Made by a program: the position numbers and the translations under genes. This document shows, piece by piece, positions 7,397-51,218 of a stretch of DNA of 60,092 bases (position 1 is its first letter; every line of letters begins with the position of its first letter). The notes beneath the pieces are model-generated. The model saw only the letters and a list, made by a program, of their open reading frames with translations, was not told the DNA's origin and searched no databases. Source of the stretch: Candidatus Bathyarchaeota archaeon (GTDB taxonomy: Archaea; Thermoproteota; Bathyarchaeia; TCS64; B23); contig CALEIY010000017.1 in the NCBI GenBank assembly GCA_937898665.1, forward strand, positions 1 to 60,092, written 5' to 3'.

Positions 7397-7491
7397 ATGG
7401 AGAGGAAATCGGAGAGTAATAATTCCATGGATTAGAACAGCCCCTCATAACCTCTTTTAAATCTCCACAGCAATTTTCTCATCGATGAGAT

Positions 7492-8982
7492 ATGGGTAAG
7501 GCTAAGGGCTTCAGGCTTGAGGGAGTCATACCGGCGCTTGTCACCCCCTTCGACGAGCATGAGGAGTTCAACGAGGAGGCTTACCGCCGCCTCATAGACT
7601 GGCTCATAGAGAGGGGAGTCACAGGGGTCGTCCCCTGCGGGACAACTGGGGAGTTCTCGATGATGACCCGTGATGAGCGTCGAAGGGTTCTGGAGGTCTG
7701 CGTTGATCAGGTTAACGGCCGTGTTCCGGTTATAGCTGGAACAGGCTGGACGGCTACGAAGCTGGTCATAGAGGAGACCCAATATGCGAAGGATGTTGGA
7801 GCCGATGCAGCTCTCATCGTCAACCCCTACTATCTGAAGCCTAAGGGTGGGAAGGGCATCTATGATCACTATCTAGCCATCGCCGAGGCCGTTGATTTCC
7901 CCATAGTCCTCTACAACATCCCCTCCTGCACTGGTCAGTATATCCCATGGCAGGTCGTCGAGGATCTGGCCGAGATCGACAACATCGTAGGCCTGAAGGA
8001 TTCCAGCGGCGACCTGAAGTATCTCATGTCGGTGCTTGAGAAGGTGGGCGACAAGATCGATGTCGTCGTCGGCTGGGATGAGGTTGTGCTCCCAGCCCTC
8101 TCAGCCGGTGCAAAGGGAATGATCCTCGCCAGCGCCAACGTCATCCCCCACATCTGGCTTGAGATCTACGAGAAGGTGAAGGAGGGAGACCTGGAGGGGG
8201 CGAGGGCTATCCATAGGCGCATCCAGAAGTTCCTGCGGCACATCGTCTCCTCCGGCGCCCTAGGGGTGAAGGCCTGCCTAAACTACATGGGCCTCAACGT
8301 CGGCAGGACCCGTAGGCCATTGATAATGGGGGACACCCTCACCTATGAGCTGAGGGAGGAGCTCCGAATAGAGCTGGAGAAGTTGGGCCTCATAGAGAAG
8401 AAGCCCATCGCCTTCGAGATAGTCCCCGAGAAGCCCCTGATAGAGCGCTTCTACGCCATCGGGGTGACCCCTGAGGAGATCAAGCAGTTCCACCTAAGAA
8501 CCGGTGAGGCCCTCGTCGGTGAAGGAGCTGAGGTGGCCCACATAGACCTTCTAATAGGCAGGGTGGACGGCCCCGTCGGCAGAGCCTATGCAGAAGTTCT
8601 GTCGAGGCTTGTAGAGAAGCAGGAGGCGGTTCAGGTGATCCTCGAACCGGGAATGGCCGTGAAGCCGCCCACAATCATAGTTCCGACCGTTCCGGTTAGA
8701 AGCCTCAGACAGGCGAGTATGGTCTACGGCCCCGCGCAGGCTGGCGTCGCAAAGGCCGTGGCGAAGAGCGTTGAGGATGGGATTCTCCCAGCGACGGATG
8801 AATTGGTCATCATCGCTAAGGTCTTCGTCCATCCAACCGCAACGGATAGGCATAGGGTCTTCATCAACAACTTCAAGGCGATGCGCCACGCCATCAGGAA
8901 GGCGATGGAGGGTAGGCCGACGCCGGAGGAGACGACGGAGCACGCGGAGAACGCCAGACACCCCTTCAGAGAGAGCCTATAA
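7492..8982 (+). CDS. Fusion protein: DapA/N-acetylneuraminate-lyase-type class I aldolase (N-terminal) plus formaldehyde-activating enzyme Fae domain (C-terminal)
   Basis: N-terminal part has GTTGEF, VLYNIPSCTG and the Schiff-base lysine context IVGLKDSSGD. C-terminal part has GEALVGEGAEVAHIDLLIG, MVYGPAQAGVAKAV and a HPF ending, as in Fae. Confidence 0.8.
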   Translation: MGKAKGFRLEGVIPALVTPFDEHEEFNEEAYRRLIDWLIERGVTGVVPCGTTGEFSMMTRDERRRVLEVCVDQVNGRVPVIAGTGWTATKLVIEETQYAKDVGADAALIVNPYYLKPKGGKGIYDHYLAIAEAVDFPIVLYNIPSCTGQYIPWQVVEDLAEIDNIVGLKDSSGDLKYLMSVLEKVGDKIDVVVGWDEVVLPALSAGAKGMILASANVIPHIWLEIYEKVKEGDLEGARAIHRRIQKFLRHIVSSGALGVKACLNYMGLNVGRTRRPLIMGDTLTYELREELRIELEKLGLIEKKPIAFEIVPEKPLIERFYAIGVTPEEIKQFHLRTGEALVGEGAEVAHIDLLIGRVDGPVGRAYAEVLSRLVEKQEAVQVILEPGMAVKPPTIIVPTVPVRSLRQASMVYGPAQAGVAKAVAKSVEDGILPATDELVIIAKVFVHPTATDRHRVFINNFKAMRHAIRKAMEGRPTPEETTEHAENARHPFRESL

Positions 8983-9101
8983 ACCTAAGGCATCCTCCTC
9001 CCATCTTTTATCTCTCATTCAAAGAGTATTCCCGCGGTATTTTAGGTGTCTGAGGGAGATTCGCCGATAATCTTTTCCCCAGGCTTGGGAAGATTCTTAT
9101 A

Positions 9102-15588: not shown

Positions 15589-15663
15589 GGGCCGGTCGTC
15601 TAGCCTGGCTGGGACGCTGCCCTTACGAGGCAGAGGTCGCCGGTTCAAATCCGGCCCGGCCCA
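15589..15663 (+). tRNA. tRNA-Val (anticodon UAC)
   Basis: Cloverleaf folded by hand. Acceptor GGGCCGG/CCGGCCC, anticodon stem CTGCC/GGCAG with loop CTTACGA, T arm GCCGG-TTCAAAT-CCGGC. No encoded CCA. Confidence 0.9.
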
Positions 15664-17885: not shown

Positions 17886-17958
17886 CGGGCCCGGGGGGAT
17901 TTGAACCCCCGCTCTCCGGCTCCGGAGGCCGGCGCCTTATCCACTCGGCTACGGGCCC
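17886..17958 (-). tRNA. tRNA-Arg (anticodon CCG)
   Basis: The reverse complement folds as acceptor GGGCCCG/CGGGCCC, anticodon stem CCGGC/GCCGG with loop CTCCGGA, T arm GGGGG-TTCAAAT-CCCCC. Confidence 0.9.
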
Positions 17959-24096: not shown

Positions 24097-24169
24097 GGGC
24101 CCGTAGCCGAGTGGATAAGGCGCCGGCCTTCGGAGCCGGAGAGCGGGGGTTCAAATCCCCCCGGGCCCG
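24097..24169 (+). tRNA. tRNA-Arg (anticodon UCG)
   Basis: Identical to the tRNA at 17886-17958 except anticodon position 34 (loop CTTCGGA). Confidence 0.9.
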
Positions 24170-46079: not shown

Positions 46080-46853
46080 CTACCCACCCCTCAGCCTTCT
46101 AAGGGTCTCCTGACATCCATAGCTCATCAGGGAGACGTCGCTTCCGATGCCGATGAATCTGAAGCCCATATCGATGAGCTCCCTGAGATGTTCGACGCCT
46201 AATCCATAGGCGATGCCTGGGGCCACTCCCGCCGCCTCCGAGGCCTCTATGACTCTCCGCATCATCTCCACCACCTCTGGGTGGAAGGGTTGACCCCTAT
46301 GCCCCGTCGAGGTGGAGAGGTCTGTTGGCCCTATGAATGTGGCGTCTACACCGTCGACGGAGACGATCTCCTCGACGTTCTCAACGGCTCTGCCGGTCTC
46401 GATCTGGACGGCGACGAACATCTCATCGTTCACATGGTCGAGATACTCCTCTGTTGAGACGCCCCACGCCGACGCAGGCCGCCCAGGGGCGCATCCCCTA
46501 ACCCCCTCCGGTGGATAGCGGGTATACCTAACCGCATTCTCAGCCGCCTCACGGGTCTCAACGAGGGGAACGACGACGCCGAGTGCTCCCGTATCCAGAG
46601 CCCTCTTAATGGCGTTCATATCGTTCCATACAACCCTGATCAGCGGGGTGGCCCCTGAGCCGCAGACCTCCCTCACCAATAGATCTAGGGTCTCAAAGCT
46701 GGCTGCTCCATGTTCCGTGTCGAAGAGAACCCAGTCGACGCCGCTTCGGGCGAGATTCCTCACCGAGACGGGGTGTAGTATATGAACCCAGGCTCCGAGG
46801 CAGGTTTCACCCCGCTTAAGCCTCCACTTCAACTCATTCCTCAGCCTAGACAT
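46080..46853 (-). CDS. HpcH/HpaI-family (class II, pyruvate-dependent) aldolase
   Basis: LKRGETCLGAWV...VDWVLFDTEHGA, VPLVETREAAE and VAVQIET motifs. Confidence 0.8.
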   Translation of the reverse strand: MSRLRNELKWRLKRGETCLGAWVHILHPVSVRNLARSGVDWVLFDTEHGAASFETLDLLVREVCGSGATPLIRVVWNDMNAIKRALDTGALGVVVPLVETREAAENAVRYTRYPPEGVRGCAPGRPASAWGVSTEEYLDHVNDEMFVAVQIETGRAVENVEEIVSVDGVDATFIGPTDLSTSTGHRGQPFHPEVVEMMRRVIEASEAAGVAPGIAYGLGVEHLRELIDMGFRFIGIGSDVSLMSYGCQETLRRLRGG

Positions 46854-46925
46854 GGTGAATCCTAATGGTCTAAAGGGGATTTAACCCTACCCCAGAACAA
46901 TTAAATCCCCGAGGCATATCCAAGC

Positions 46926-47708
46926 TTGATGCTTGAGGAGGTTCTGGAGGCCTTCAGGGGGGAGGCTGAGCGGTGGGGTTTGAGGGGTGTCCTCGGCTTC
47001 GCCCCCTTCGGAGACGTCTATGCTGCGCTGATGCCGATTCAGAGGAGGCGGCTTGAGGAGCTCTGCGGCGACACCATAGACTCCATGCGGGGCGCCATCT
47101 CCATCGCCTATGCCTATCCGAGGGAGGTTATCGAGGCCATACCCATGAGGGGGTATAGGGAGTCTTGGAACATCTATGCCAGGGCCTATCATAGGTTGAA
47201 TAGGGCCTTGAACCATACGGCGGAGAGGATCGCCGAGCTCGTCGATGGGGTCGCCGTCCCCGCAACCCTCGAGGGGTTCACCGGCAGTGTGGGGCATGTG
47301 AAGGATTTCTACGCCGCGACGGTCTCCCACAGGGTTGCAGCTGAGCTGGCTGGGTTGGGCTGGAGGGGGAAGAGCGGATTGATTGTGAATCCCAGATACG
47401 CCTCGGCGATTAGATTGGCCACCATCTACACCCCCCTATCGTTTCCATCTACGGGGCCGTCTGAGGGGGGATGCGGCGAATGTCGAGCCTGCCTTGAGAC
47501 CTGCCCGCTGCTGCGGGCTGAGAGGCTCGGCGAGGATTATAGGGAGCTGTGTCGGCGATACATCATCGCCCTTGAGCGGCGTGGATTGGAGGCCGATGTC
47601 TGCGGACGCTGTGTGAGGGCCTGCGTCGAATCCTTCGAGTCGGGATATATGAGTCGACACCTAAACCCAGATTGGATTAGGAGGCCCTACTACATCGACA
47701 TAGATTGA
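46926..47708 (+). CDS. QueG/reductive-dehalogenase-like iron-sulfur protein
   Basis: AAELAGLGWRGKSGLIVNP block, CGECRACLETCP, and a second Cys group C...CGRCVRAC. TTG start. Confidence 0.55.
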   Translation: MMLEEVLEAFRGEAERWGLRGVLGFAPFGDVYAALMPIQRRRLEELCGDTIDSMRGAISIAYAYPREVIEAIPMRGYRESWNIYARAYHRLNRALNHTAERIAELVDGVAVPATLEGFTGSVGHVKDFYAATVSHRVAAELAGLGWRGKSGLIVNPRYASAIRLATIYTPLSFPSTGPSEGGCGECRACLETCPLLRAERLGEDYRELCRRYIIALERRGLEADVCGRCVRACVESFESGYMSRHLNPDWIRRPYYIDID

Positions 47709-47746
47709 GGCGAGAGCCTTCTTACAGCCACTGTAATTCCATTCTC

Positions 47747-48646
47747 CTATGGGATTTTGAAGAGGGGGTGTTCCCTGCTGAGTTTTAGGCCTCCCCTCAT
47801 CGCTGGGAAGGCGTAGGCGGCGTCCACCATCGCTACGGCTGGATAGACGTAGGGGGCCTCCTCTATTGGGCCGTAGAGGAGGAAGTCGGCTCCGAGGGCT
47901 GCTGCCACGGCGTTGACGGCCGCCACCGCCGGCCTTCTGGCTTTGACTCCCATCTTCCTTTTCAGGCCCCTCCATAGGCCTATGGCGTTGTGGGGGCCGC
48001 ATCCAGATGGTAGTCCCCATCTGGACTTGGCTTCAGGTATGGCTTGGAGGGCTGCTCCGAGGCTTGGGATGTCCATCACGAAGGTGTCGAGAAGGGGTTT
48101 CTCGATGCCATATCCCTCAACGGCCTTTAGGAGCTCCTGGAGCGCCTTCAACCTTCCAGCTGAGGTGAGGCTTGAGACATTATAGGCGAGGAGTATGGCG
48201 CATTTGACTCCCGCATCCCTTATGGTCTCAAGCTCCTCTCTTCCGCATCCTGGTAGCAGCGAGTTGTAGACGATTCGGTTTGTAAGCCCCACCTCCCCAG
48301 CCCACTTCAGGGCCTCGATCCTAACCTCCGGCGTGGGGCCGCCTAGGAGGAGGGGTTCATCGGTGACGTCTGCCGCGAATTCCAGGTATCTCCTCAAGGC
48401 CTCCGAGGTAGCCCCCTCGACGTCCAGCATGGAGGGGTTCCCCGTCCGATCTGAGTACTCCTCCTGCAGCTTTATGAGCTCCTCAGCCTTCTCCTCGTCG
48501 AAGACTCCGCGGCGTTCATCCTCGACGATCCGCTGCTTCTTGTAGAATATTGTACCTATCAGCACCGTTGGGTCTCGACCTGGTATTCCGCCGACTTTGA
48601 CTCCGGCGATCTCGAAGACCTTCTGCTCAGCCTCCAGCCTCATCAA
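47747..48646 (-). CDS. MtrH-family methyltransferase (methylcorrinoid:tetrahydro(methano)pterin type)
   Basis: VFEIAGVKVGGIPGRDPTVLIGTIFYKKQRIVEDERRGVFDEEKAEELI...TGNPSMLDV closely follows the MtrH pattern. Confidence 0.85.
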   Translation of the reverse strand: MMRLEAEQKVFEIAGVKVGGIPGRDPTVLIGTIFYKKQRIVEDERRGVFDEEKAEELIKLQEEYSDRTGNPSMLDVEGATSEALRRYLEFAADVTDEPLLLGGPTPEVRIEALKWAGEVGLTNRIVYNSLLPGCGREELETIRDAGVKCAILLAYNVSSLTSAGRLKALQELLKAVEGYGIEKPLLDTFVMDIPSLGAALQAIPEAKSRWGLPSGCGPHNAIGLWRGLKRKMGVKARRPAVAAVNAVAAALGADFLLYGPIEEAPYVYPAVAMVDAAYAFPAMRGGLKLSREHPLFKIP

Positions 48647-49769
48647 CCTGCTCCACCACCTCGACGCCGCGTCTCCGGAGCTCCATGAGTATCTCCTCGA
48701 AGATCTTTGGCCTCAGACCAAGCCTCTCAGGGGGTATAACTCCCCTCTCCTCTATTCGCCCCTTCGCCAGCAGTTGGGCCACTATGGAGGTTGTGTAGCC
48801 CGTCGTCCTAGCCATCGCCGTGACGCCCCTCGCCCTGTCATATCTGTCGAGGAGGTGGAATCTGATGGTCTTCTCGGCTCCATCCTTCAAGCCCTTAACC
48901 TCCACCATCATCGCCAGGAGGTCTCCCACATCGGGCATCCTCAGATGCCTCTCCAGCAGCCTGGCGGTGAAGCGCTTTGGTGAAACCTTCACCCCCTCAA
49001 CCTCTATGGGCTCATCGTCGAAGAGGCCGAGGTCTCTGAGCAGCTTAACCCTCTCCACATGCCCAGGATACCTAAGCGTCTTCTCATACATGCTCTCCAC
49101 CCCCTTGAAGGTGTCGATGAGGGTTCTCAGGCCATCTGTGTAGAAGGCCTCCAAACGGCCGAGCCCTGGAAACTCGATCTCCTCGAGGCCGCTGAGGGCT
49201 GGAACCTCGACAACTCTGCCGCCCTCGACGATGCGGACGGGTCGTATATACTCGTCGATGAGTCCCTCAGCCGACCATGTTATCGTATAGCCCAGCGGTG
49301 GAACAGGCCTCTCAGGTATGCCTCCGACGAGTATGTGGGCCGCCCTCACCTCGTCGAGCTTCGAGGCCCCATAGCCCACCAGCATATTCGACAATCCAGG
49401 GGCCACTCCGCAGTCGGGGATGAGTGTCATCCCCCTCCGCCGAGCCTCCTCGTCGAGGATCAGCGGATTCTCAGGGGTGTAGGAGACATCCACCATGTCG
49501 ACGCCCATCTCAACGGCGGCCTTCATGGCGTTGAAGCCGTAATCCCCTGGCAGCGCCCCCACAGCTAGGTCGAATCCCTCAAGGGCCTTGGCTATTCCCT
49601 CCTTACTTGAGGCGTCGACGGTCGTCCACTCTCCACCGATCTCCTCAGCCACCCTCTGGGCCGCAGCCTTGAATTTGTCGCCGACGGTTATCTCAGCCTC
49701 CAGCGACTCCGAGAGGTCTTTGGCGATGGTGGAGCCGATCTTTCCGCAGCCGATGACTATGATTCGCAT
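48627..49769 (-). CDS. Saccharopine dehydrogenase-family NAD(P)-dependent oxidoreductase
   Basis: IVIGCGKIGS Rossmann motif, IPDCGVAPGLSNML, and TAMARTTGYTTSIVAQLL C-terminal block. Confidence 0.8.
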   Translation of the reverse strand: MRIIVIGCGKIGSTIAKDLSESLEAEITVGDKFKAAAQRVAEEIGGEWTTVDASSKEGIAKALEGFDLAVGALPGDYGFNAMKAAVEMGVDMVDVSYTPENPLILDEEARRRGMTLIPDCGVAPGLSNMLVGYGASKLDEVRAAHILVGGIPERPVPPLGYTITWSAEGLIDEYIRPVRIVEGGRVVEVPALSGLEEIEFPGLGRLEAFYTDGLRTLIDTFKGVESMYEKTLRYPGHVERVKLLRDLGLFDDEPIEVEGVKVSPKRFTARLLERHLRMPDVGDLLAMMVEVKGLKDGAEKTIRFHLLDRYDRARGVTAMARTTGYTTSIVAQLLAKGRIEERGVIPPERLGLRPKIFEEILMELRRRGVEVVEQVDEAGG

Positions 49770-49772
49770 CTC

Positions 49773-51218
49773 TTACACCTCCGGCCTCTGTAGGTTGTAT
49801 CTTTTGAAGATGGAGTTTACGACTTCCTCTAAGGCCTGTGCCCTCTCCTCTGGCATAGGTTTGGGTTGATGTTCTCTCAGCAGCTTCTCTACTCGTTCCT
49901 TGGCTCTGGTGATGATGTCCTTTGATCCGGCTTTCTTCCAGGCGTCGAGGGTGAGTCTGCAGACTACATCTGATGGTATGTATCTTTCTCTTCTGAAGTG
50001 CTTCATCGTATGCCTCTCACCCAGATAGTGGCCTCCAGGGCCCACCTTCTCTATGACATCCAGAGCCAAGGTCTCCTCATCGACATCGATGCCCTCCACC
50101 AACCTATAGGCCATGGCACACAGCTCATCATCAATAACCAACTTCTCCAAGGACTGACAATTCTCTGAGGCCAACATCCCTGGGCCTGAGACGACGTTTA
50201 CGCCGGTGAGAGCAGCCATCAAGATGCCTATGGCGGACTCGAAGCAGCACTGACCATCAACAACCTTAGAGTCGCTGAGGCCGAGGTAGCCATGGGTGGG
50301 CAGTCCATAATACTTACCTACCTCCGCTTCGGCGCAAGCCGTCATCATCGACTCTATGGCTCCAAGCCTCGCGGTGGCGTATCTCATGTCGAAGAGCGTT
50401 GGGGAGCCGCCGTAGATGACTGGGGTTCCAGCCCTTTTAAGCTGGGCGATGACGATGCCGCTGAGGATCTCGGCGTTCGCCTGAACGAGGCTTCCGGCTA
50501 TGGTCACAGGCCCTGTCGCCCCTATCTGGGGCGCAGCTATGATCTCAGCCGGTATCCCCCTCTCGGCGAGGTCTATGACATTCTGGGCCGTGACATCTCC
50601 CCACATGAGTGGTGATGTTGGGCAGCAGTCGAAGATGGCTCTTGGTCTGCGTCTCAATTCCTCTGGGCCTCCTACGGCTGCGTTCAGCATCTCAGCCATG
50701 TCTATGAGGCCCTGCTTCGAGAAGGCTCCAGTGATGATGGGCTTATCAGAATTCCTCAAAACGATATACAGCCTATAGAGGTCTGCGACAACATCTGGAA
50801 CATCGGAGGGAACTATAGCAGTGCTCTGCGCCCCTATGTGTTCGAGGGCGTCAGTCACCCTCACCAACTTCTCCAGGTCTCTCGACGTCCCCCTCCTAAT
50901 CTCTCCGGTTTCGGAGTCTAGGAAGTATATGGCTGCCGATCCTGGGTTGTAGACGACGTTGTCGCCTCCGATGAGGAGGCTTCTATCGCCGTCTCTGCTG
51001 TATAGCTCTATCTTGGATGGAGCCTTCTTCAGGCATTCCCTCGCCAGCTCCTCAGGGATCCTCACCCTTCTACCCTCAACCTCACAGCCATTCTCCTCCA
51101 GCAGCCTCAAGGCATTCTCATTTCTAACCTCCACCCCCACCTTCTCTAAGATGTGTAGAGTGGAGCTGTGTATCTCCTCTATCTCATCTCTCTCTAGAAG
51201 CTTGAATTCCCTAACCAT
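49773..51218 (-). CDS. MttB-superfamily methyltransferase, non-pyrrolysine member
   Basis: EIEEIHSSTLHILEKVGVEV N-terminus. 481 uninterrupted codons with no in-frame TAG. Confidence 0.85.
   Translation of the reverse strand: MVREFKLLERDEIEEIHSSTLHILEKVGVEVRNENALRLLEENGCEVEGRRVRIPEELARECLKKAPSKIELYSRDGDRSLLIGGDNVVYNPGSAAIYFLDSETGEIRRGTSRDLEKLVRVTDALEHIGAQSTAIVPSDVPDVVADLYRLYIVLRNSDKPIITGAFSKQGLIDMAEMLNAAVGGPEELRRRPRAIFDCCPTSPLMWGDVTAQNVIDLAERGIPAEIIAAPQIGATGPVTIAGSLVQANAEILSGIVIAQLKRAGTPVIYGGSPTLFDMRYATARLGAIESMMTACAEAEVGKYYGLPTHGYLGLSDSKVVDGQCCFESAIGILMAALTGVNVVSGPGMLASENCQSLEKLVIDDELCAMAYRLVEGIDVDEETLALDVIEKVGPGGHYLGERHTMKHFRRERYIPSDVVCRLTLDAWKKAGSKDIITRAKERVEKLLREHQPKPMPEERAQALEEVVNSIFKRYNLQRPEV

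Follow-up and report, generated by a model that had tools for sequence, protein, structure and literature searches.

The window analysed here, a stretch of 60,092 nucleotides from a Candidatus Bathyarchaeota archaeon (contig CALEIY010000017.1 of assembly GCA_937898665.1), carries on its plus strand a gene in which a DapA-like class I aldolase is joined to a formaldehyde-activating enzyme (Fae). The gene is one unbroken open reading frame (ORF) of 496 amino acids plus a stop in the ORF list of the window. An original prediction, made from the letters of the DNA, had described a single uninterrupted frame of 496 codons with DapA-type and Fae domains, and the ORF list, Pfam and NCBIfam bear this out; the aldolase and Fae motifs that it quoted were also all found where it had placed them. 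The features of the gene and its immediate upstream region are listed below, with residue conservation counted across 211 full-length fusion sequences.

7455..7462, plus strand: candidate archaeal TATA box TTTTAAAT, about 30 nt 5' of the fusion ATG, recognised from sequence only
7492..8982, plus strand: complete ORF of the DapA-like aldolase/Fae fusion, 496 codons, no interruption
7516..8328, plus strand: class I (Schiff-base) pyruvate-aldolase domain of the DHDPS/DapA/NAL family, residues 9-279, PF00701
7927..7929, plus strand: Cys146 codon, at the position of DHDPS Arg138 in alignments with M. jannaschii, bacterial and E. coli DapA
7996..7998, plus strand: Lys169 codon, Schiff-base lysine equivalent to K161 of E. 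coli DapA in an alignment with DapA, NanA, YagE and YjhH, present in 209/211 fusions
8071..8082, plus strand: G194-W195-D196-E197 motif, specific to the fusion clade by its conservation in the 211 fusions; DapA has G-D/N-D-x there
8383..8496, plus strand: inter-domain linker, residues 298-335, predicted flexible from the predicted local distance difference test (pLDDT) and conserved positions
8500..8967, plus strand: Fae domain, residues 337-492, from PF08714, TIGR03126 and the alignment with 1y5y
8539..8547, plus strand: His350-Ile351-Asp352 codons, the Fae H-x-D motif, aligned to A-H-I-D of M. extorquens Fae

Both domains are nearly complete. The DHDPS profile PF00701 matches residues 9-279 (E 8e-81) over profile positions 2-273 of 289, and the Fae profile PF08714 matches residues 337-492 (E 2e-48; 164.6 bits for a cut-off of 27) over positions 1-158 of 159. 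Among the NCBIfam models, the protein reaches 240.3 bits with dapA TIGR00674 (cut-off 206.15) and 170.6 bits with fae TIGR03126 (cut-off 118.05). The motifs follow one another along the chain as GTTGE at residue 50, NPYY at 111, YNIPSC at 141, GLKDS at 167, GEALVGEG at 338, AHIDLL at 349, YGPAQAGV at 412 and HPF at 490. An AlphaFold2 model (mean pLDDT 79, predicted template modelling score (pTM) 0.78) consists of two well-folded domains, a confident TIM barrel at residues 10-297 (pLDDT about 90 or higher) and the Fae domain at residues 336-488, connected by a flexible linker of about 30 residues. The pLDDT of linker residues 307-335 falls below 50, yet this segment holds the conserved or invariant positions F320, T326, P327, I330 and F333 (alignments A3 and A5). 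In a Foldseek comparison to the PDB, the best structural match of the barrel was 2yxg, the M. jannaschii DapA (template modelling (TM) score 0.95, 39% identity), and no entry with both domains occurred among the matches of the fusion. Fae is a pentamer, and enzymes of the DapA type are built on dimers. The gene upstream lies on the opposite strand and this, together with the candidate TATA box, suggests a monocistronic gene that is read from an archaeal-type promoter of its own and has a very short leader.

The fusion is real and not an artefact of assembly. The original prediction had singled out the domain junction for a check of the reads against a frameshift or an assembly fusion. Unitigs of four independent metagenome runs, from different studies of sediment and hydrothermal-vent environments, tile the junction at 8206-8610 and differ by substitutions only, with no insertion, deletion or joint. 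The identical fusion protein was called on two further independently assembled contigs. Among 5.8 billion proteins searched, at least 120 full-length matches were recovered (about 495-497 amino acids, 62-80% identity), every one with both Pfam domains, and an exhaustive search grouped full-length fusions at 50% identity into about 15 clusters diverging to about 38% identity. Chance or chimeric joining is thus ruled out, and the fusion is conserved and under selection. The combination of DHDPS and Fae, for which a domain-architecture search had been suggested, is present in public protein sets, where both Pfam domains are precomputed and the protein is named from one half only, as "4-hydroxy-tetrahydrodipicolinate synthase" or "formaldehyde-activating enzyme". 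No paper describing a DapA-like/Fae fusion was found in the searchable literature, and the architecture appears to be unstudied.

Low-depth metatranscriptome unitigs from a related strain match stretches of both halves and are weak evidence that the gene is expressed. One such low-depth unitig (run X24; window 7638-8995) leads from position 8995 back to 7638, a step of 1358, across 30 unmatched bases. This unitig is probably an assembly chimera; a tandem arrangement in a related strain could also have produced it.

A scan with one genome per species identified 368 species genomes that encode a relative, mainly among the Bathyarchaeia and the Asgard archaea, and all of the best 80 of these 368 encode a full-length fusion. 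Those 80 comprise about 27 Bathyarchaeia and about 50 Asgard genomes (labelled Promethearchaeota/Loki, Hodarchaeota, Hermodarchaeota and Odinarchaeota). Among the Bathyarchaeia, the metagenome-assembled genome (MAG) JAGHBJ01, isolate AUK253, is 98% identical to the window, and more divergent classes of fusion carry the labels Thorarchaeota and Korarchaeota/Thermoproteota. Typical archaeal fusions also occur on contigs of MAGs labelled Candidatus Desulfaltia, Nanopelagicaceae bacterium, Undinarchaeota and Anaerolineae bacterium (L030, L060, L037 and cluster member P0394); the bacterial- and Undinarchaeota-labelled occurrences are probably binning contaminants and not real bacterial or DPANN carriers.

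Some divergent members of the family have lost parts of one or the other half. In six fusions (P0123, P0126, P0128, P0129, P0132 and P0136, one of them from Thorarchaeota), the Fae half is without the H-x-D motif and without its last 20 or so residues, including HPF (alignment A1), and the aldolase lysine is kept in most of them. One contig (L096:8544-11449; GCA_003560875.1, PWJQ01000035.1) carries a tandem pair of DHDPS-Fae fusion genes that overlap by 4 nt. The Schiff-base lysine is missing from both, which have Ala or Leu at position 169 and an altered GTTGE, and in one of them the Fae half is also degenerate and truncated. Retention of the architecture despite the loss of catalytic residues suggests a structural or heteromeric role in this lineage. 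The only unfused relative found (P0131, L097:717-2530) is an aldolase-only protein of 310 amino acids, 58% identical, with the same non-Arg and GHDE signature; 12 nt downstream lies a gene for a ThrC-like (threonine-synthase-like) pyridoxal-phosphate enzyme. The idea of a family of unfused relatives was rejected, as the nearest metagenome relative of P0131 (L098) is a full fusion and P0131 is a single exception.

The aldolase half has the equipment of a class I pyruvate aldolase. It matches the profile of the DHDPS/DapA-NAL superfamily over the whole barrel and carries its Schiff-base, proton-relay and carboxylate motifs (GxxGE, Y133 and Y107 in E. coli numbering). Residues K169, Y141, Y113/Y114 and G50-T-T-G-E54 align with their counterparts in E. 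coli DapA, NanA, YagE and YjhH and are nearly invariant among the fusions: Lys169 in 209 of 211, Tyr141 in 210, Thr51 in 207 and Thr52 in 208, with Tyr113 in 205 (Phe in the other six) and Tyr114 in 195 (Phe in 16). Other positions differ from DapA. In E. coli DHDPS, Arg138 binds the carboxylate of aspartate semialdehyde, and the corresponding residue of the window protein is Cys146, within YNIPSCT where E. coli and M. jannaschii DapA read YNVPSRT. Arginine occurs there in none of the 211 fusions (Ala in 94, Cys in 83, Thr in 22, Leu in 6, Val in 5 and Tyr in 1), compared with 56 of the 124 nearest stand-alone relatives. Two of the structures matched, PDB 2a6l and 2a6n, are R138 variants of E. 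coli DapA, which are severely impaired with aspartate semialdehyde. Residue 195 is Trp in 198/211 fusions and otherwise His, and Glu197 is invariant (211/211); in stand-alone DapA relatives of the Arg type, these two positions hold D, N or E and S, D, G or A, respectively. The motifs G-W/H-D-E and K-D-S-S-G mark the fusion clade.

A neighbour-joining tree of the fusion aldolase halves, the 124 stand-alone representatives, E. coli DapA, NanA, YagE and YjhH and M. jannaschii DapA placed the fusions in a monophyletic group, apart from all five reference enzymes. Whether the aldolase half would cluster with genuine DapA had been raised by the original prediction as a point that could undo it, and the outcome is divided: at the coarse level of profile models the half does go with DapA, passing TIGR00674 and finding DHDPS as its best PDB matches, but it forms a clade of its own in which the arginine is absent throughout. 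Because this aspartate-semialdehyde-binding residue is missing from every fusion, the aldolase half, which descends from an (archaeal) DapA, is probably not a lysine-pathway DapA. These sequence patterns would fit the recruitment of a DapA ancestor, with its aspartate-semialdehyde pocket reshaped so as to be smaller and without charge.

The Fae half is intact and predicted to be catalytically competent. Its alignment with M. extorquens Fae (1y5y, E 5e-29) covers the full length and takes in E-V-A-H-I-D-L, GPAQ.GVA and the HPF at the C-terminus, and the half also matches the NCBIfam model of the bifunctional Fae/hexulose-6-phosphate synthase, PRK13307 (E 1.6e-41). The loss of conserved residues from this half was another way in which the prediction might have failed, and they are kept: H350 in 205/211 fusions, D352 in 207, G413, P414 and Q416 in about 205, and R489-H490-P491 in 204-205. 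Fae interconverts free formaldehyde plus tetrahydromethanopterin (H4MPT) and methylene-H4MPT. The cofactor is plausibly present in the host, since genes for methyltransferases of the MtrH family (methyl-H4MPT methyltransferase; PF02007, E 6e-92, at 47747..48646) and the MttB family lie at 47.7-51.2 kb on the same contig as the fusion.

These methyltransferase genes are part of a four-gene cluster on the minus strand (46080-51218) that encodes an HpcH/HpaI class II pyruvate aldolase, the MtrH-family protein, a saccharopine-dehydrogenase-like protein and the trimethylamine-type MttB-family protein. The best NCBIfam match of its aldolase is HpaI/GarL, below the cut-off. From its gene content, the cluster could possibly be a module that feeds methyl groups of methylated amines into H4MPT.

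The genomic neighbourhood of the fusion was compared by clustering all ORFs from 80 loci and the window. In the window, the fusion is surrounded by genes for a glycosyltransferase, membrane proteins, an EamA transporter, the class I lysyl-tRNA synthetase (LysRS) and further housekeeping functions, and no pathway signal was seen among them. The recurrent neighbour elsewhere is a gene for a TIM-barrel protein of about 428 amino acids, which adjoins the fusion in 51 of the 80 loci and shares its strand in every one of them. The partner gene is upstream of the fusion in 49 loci, almost all from Asgard archaea, and the median spacing there is about 22 nt (in two of the 49, one gene intervenes and the gap is about 1.5 kb); it is downstream in the Bathyarchaeota locus L019, with a 4-nt overlap, and in L037. 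On a 398-kb Bathyarchaeia contig (L090) it is divergently paired with a fusion paralog of 492 amino acids. No homolog of this partner was found in the 60-kb window. Examples of the partner gene, all outside the window, are:

L019:11491-12795
L043:8692-9978
L037:11512-12768
L090:10001-11284

As the association persists in three gene orders across two phyla, the partner and the fusion are probably linked in function and members of the same pathway. The partner has no match in Pfam, NCBIfam or the PDB sequences, and its family counts at least 8,000 members, all named "hypothetical", with 65-94% identity within the Bathyarchaeia and 58% between Bathyarchaeia and Asgard archaea. Its model (pTM 0.79) is an N-terminal helical bundle followed by a TIM barrel, which Foldseek matched to generic barrels only (class II fructose-bisphosphate aldolases, MTHFR and TrpA; TM 0.3-0.46), and hhalign comparisons with MttB, MtrH and the fusion itself found no relationship.

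A weaker signal is seen in six Bathyarchaeia loci of one sub-lineage (clusters 22 and 23), where genes for a LarA-like nickel-pincer 2-hydroxyacid racemase and a split UxaA/GarD-type sugar-acid dehydratase form a divergent pair with the fusion, a context that hints at hydroxy-acid or sugar-acid metabolism. In three of them (L030, L031 and L035), a small cupin gene additionally lies directly upstream. The racemase/dehydratase loci are:

L030:5642-8921
L027:4856-7586
L025
L031
L033
L035

Two further neighbours were considered and set aside. A gene for a 4-oxalocrotonate-tautomerase-family protein of 59 amino acids (PF01361; 9312-9491, plus strand) lies 330 nt 3' of the fusion. It was rejected as a general partner, being found beside the fusion only in near-identical strains, with a distant homolog 3.6 kb away in one lineage (L004/L037), where it adjoins an aldehyde dehydrogenase gene. 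In 18 loci, genes for a 2-oxoacid:ferredoxin oxidoreductase lie about 4.5 kb upstream; they belong to an abundant gene family, and their presence was judged likely to be coincidental synteny. The rest of the window is archaeal housekeeping in character, with the class I LysRS, an arginyl-tRNA synthetase, TFIIB, PCNA, ribosomal proteins L1/L10/L11, SRP54/FtsY and the diphthamide and deoxyhypusine synthases. Rfam (RF00005) places tRNA genes as follows:

15589-15663, plus strand
17886-17958, minus strand
24097-24169, plus strand

The interpretation preferred here, held tentatively and at somewhat short of an even chance, is that the fusion is a bifunctional enzyme similar to Fae-Hps, in which a pyruvate aldolase would couple the reaction pyruvate + formaldehyde <-> 4-hydroxy-2-oxobutanoate (HOB) to methylene-H4MPT. 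The N-terminal half would act as a pyruvate aldolase through a Schiff base on Lys169 and, without the arginine and the acidic or polar residues that hold aspartate semialdehyde, should take a small uncharged aldehyde. The C-terminal half would interconvert formaldehyde plus H4MPT and methylene-H4MPT, so that the net reversible reaction would be pyruvate + methylene-H4MPT + H2O <-> 4-hydroxy-2-oxobutanoate + H4MPT. Formaldehyde would be a tethered intermediate between the two modules and would not be set free in the cell, making the protein a two-module "hydroxymethyltransferase" and a functional analogue of ketopantoate hydroxymethyltransferase. The model is proposed because of the analogy to Fae-Hps and the loss of the aspartate-semialdehyde site; we infer formaldehyde as the aldehyde, pyruvate as the donor, the direction of flux and any channelling. 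The channelling of formaldehyde put forward in the original prediction is consistent with all of the findings and has become more plausible through the lost site and the Fae-Hps precedent, though it keeps the standing of a proposal.

Fae-Hps of methanogens (5,6,7,8-tetrahydromethanopterin hydro-lyase / 3-hexulose-6-phosphate synthase, PRK13307) is the closest system in concept. Both proteins covalently join Fae to a TIM-barrel aldolase-type enzyme, and in both formaldehyde would presumably be handed between the aldolase and H4MPT. For the present protein, the domains establish the fusion of Fae to a carbon-carbon lyase, and the lost aspartate-semialdehyde site is what suggests that this lyase may handle formaldehyde. 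The two differ in the fold class of the aldolase, the domain order, the predicted substrates and the hosts: Fae is N-terminal in Fae-Hps and C-terminal here, the partner there is an Hps with the orotidine-monophosphate-decarboxylase fold and here a class I Schiff-base aldolase of the DapA family, the carbon skeleton is a sugar phosphate there and a predicted 2-oxoacid here, and methanogens are replaced by Bathyarchaeia and Asgard archaea. Compared with DapA/DHDPS itself (2yxg and E. coli DapA), the barrel shares the fold, 39-41% identity, the Schiff-base lysine and the Thr-Thr and Tyr relay, and it passes the dapA hidden Markov model (HMM), but it has Cys in place of R138 (elsewhere in the clade also A, T, L, V or Y) and Trp in place of Asp/Asn187, bears Fae on a C-terminal extension of 200 residues, and falls in a separate clade. 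The proposed reaction also resembles that of PanB, in which a hydroxymethyl unit passes from a methylene-pterin to C3 of a 2-oxoacid. PanB, however, has one domain, depends on a metal, belongs to an unrelated barrel family and works directly with methylene-tetrahydrofolate. It has no sequence relationship to the fusion, in which two modules would do the work via free formaldehyde. The aldol reaction of pyruvate with formaldehyde to HOB is itself established, so far as a promiscuous activity only, and HOB has been called a "non-native metabolite" in a review (PMC8879981). The HOB aldolases of the synthetic homoserine cycle, such as RhmA, catalyse the same conversion that is proposed for the fusion, but as a side activity of class II (HpcH/HpaI) or sugar-acid aldolases on free formaldehyde (PMC8879981), whereas the fusion would be dedicated, H4MPT-coupled and natural.

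Several observations weigh against a formaldehyde-coupled aldolase and bear on the other explanations. The D-E pair of G-W-D-E resembles the sugar-binding G-Y-D-E/D of NanA, YagE and YjhH and could mean that the enzyme takes a larger hydroxylated aldehyde, and the fusion may also have a structural role, as the divergent lineages with a degenerate Fae half or, in the tandem copies of one contig, a lost aldolase lysine indicate. These observations would suit an unlikely alternative in which the substrate is a larger 2-keto-3-deoxy (sugar) acid or another 4-hydroxy-2-oxoacid that yields an aldehyde other than formaldehyde, with Fae serving as an oligomerisation or regulatory scaffold or as a scavenger of formaldehyde made elsewhere, for example by a reverse ribulose monophosphate (RuMP) route. 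The six loci with racemase and dehydratase, three of them with the cupin, speak for it: UxaA/GarD-type dehydratases make 2-keto-3-deoxy acids, which are the usual substrates of the non-DapA members of the family. That context is confined to one sub-lineage, however, and occurs neither in the window nor in the Asgard loci; Trp195 would be expected to narrow rather than widen the aldehyde pocket; and the Fae motifs, strictly retained by the window protein and by about 205 of the 211 homologs, indicate a catalytic Fae.

Also unfavourable to the formaldehyde-coupled model is that the aldolase half exceeds the NCBI dapA equivalog cut-off and that every one of the nearest solved structures, whether matched by sequence or by fold, is a DHDPS, with M. 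jannaschii DapA first. The protein could on this evidence, and in line with its public annotation as DapA, be a genuine 4-hydroxy-tetrahydrodipicolinate synthase of the lysine pathway, joined to Fae without metabolic coupling and with another residue standing in for the arginine. This is improbable given that the Arg138 equivalent, retained in both reference DapA and in 56 of the 124 stand-alone relatives, is missing from all fusions, that E. coli R138 variants are severely impaired in the use of aspartate semialdehyde, and that the fusion clade has its own invariant motifs. Within 10 kb of the fusion in the window and 100 archaeal loci (1.49 Mb of flanks), no homologs of dapB (E. coli probe, tblastn E<1e-4) or of thrA/B/C were found; the lack of dapB counts against a lysine-pathway enzyme, and the lack of homoserine/threonine, lysine or other interpretable pathway genes in the same loci counts against the formaldehyde-coupled model as well. 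There is a slim chance that the enzyme is instead a hydroxymethyltransferase acting on another 2-oxoacid, for example converting alpha-ketoisovalerate and methylene-H4MPT to ketopantoate as an H4MPT-dependent PanB analogue for coenzyme A synthesis. The argument for it is one of chemical logic, ketopantoate being a 4-hydroxy-2-oxoacid formed by formal addition of formaldehyde, and the gene does show housekeeping behaviour, being highly conserved and single-copy in a neighbourhood that varies. Enzymes of the DapA family, however, are typically specific for pyruvate, and the pyruvate-binding residues GTTGE, Y141 and K169 are unchanged; nor do pantoate or coenzyme A genes occur among the annotated neighbour clusters.

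Should the fusion act as a formaldehyde-coupled pyruvate aldolase, it may have a wider place in the metabolism of its hosts. It is possible, though doubtful, that Bathyarchaeia and Asgard archaea possess a dedicated natural transfer of one-carbon (C1) units from methylene-H4MPT, supplied by the Wood-Ljungdahl pathway or by methyl oxidation, onto pyruvate to form HOB, a so far unrecognised route between C1 units and C4 compounds (e.g., homoserine) in which the TIM-barrel family of at least 8,000 members would be a further component. Nature would then have an equivalent of the key step in the synthetic "homoserine cycle". For synthetic methylotrophy, which has so far had only promiscuous enzymes to draw on (PMC8879981), a dedicated and possibly thermostable pyruvate-formaldehyde aldolase that delivers its own formaldehyde would also be of interest.

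The hosts of the fusion are ecologically dominant and evolutionarily prominent archaea, and its mis-annotation is systematic. With the protein labelled as DapA or as Fae across hundreds of Bathyarchaeia and Asgard genomes, metabolic reconstructions may wrongly assign a step of the lysine pathway and may miss the real role of the enzyme. The TIM-barrel partner, from a large, highly conserved and unannotated family, now has a functional context that can be tested. If the proposed reaction is true, the fusion would connect the H4MPT C1 pool directly, and at no cost in ATP, to central C3/C4 metabolism in two of the most abundant archaeal groups of sediments, and it would bear on how these organisms assimilate or dispose of C1 units, for example those from methylated or methoxylated compounds.

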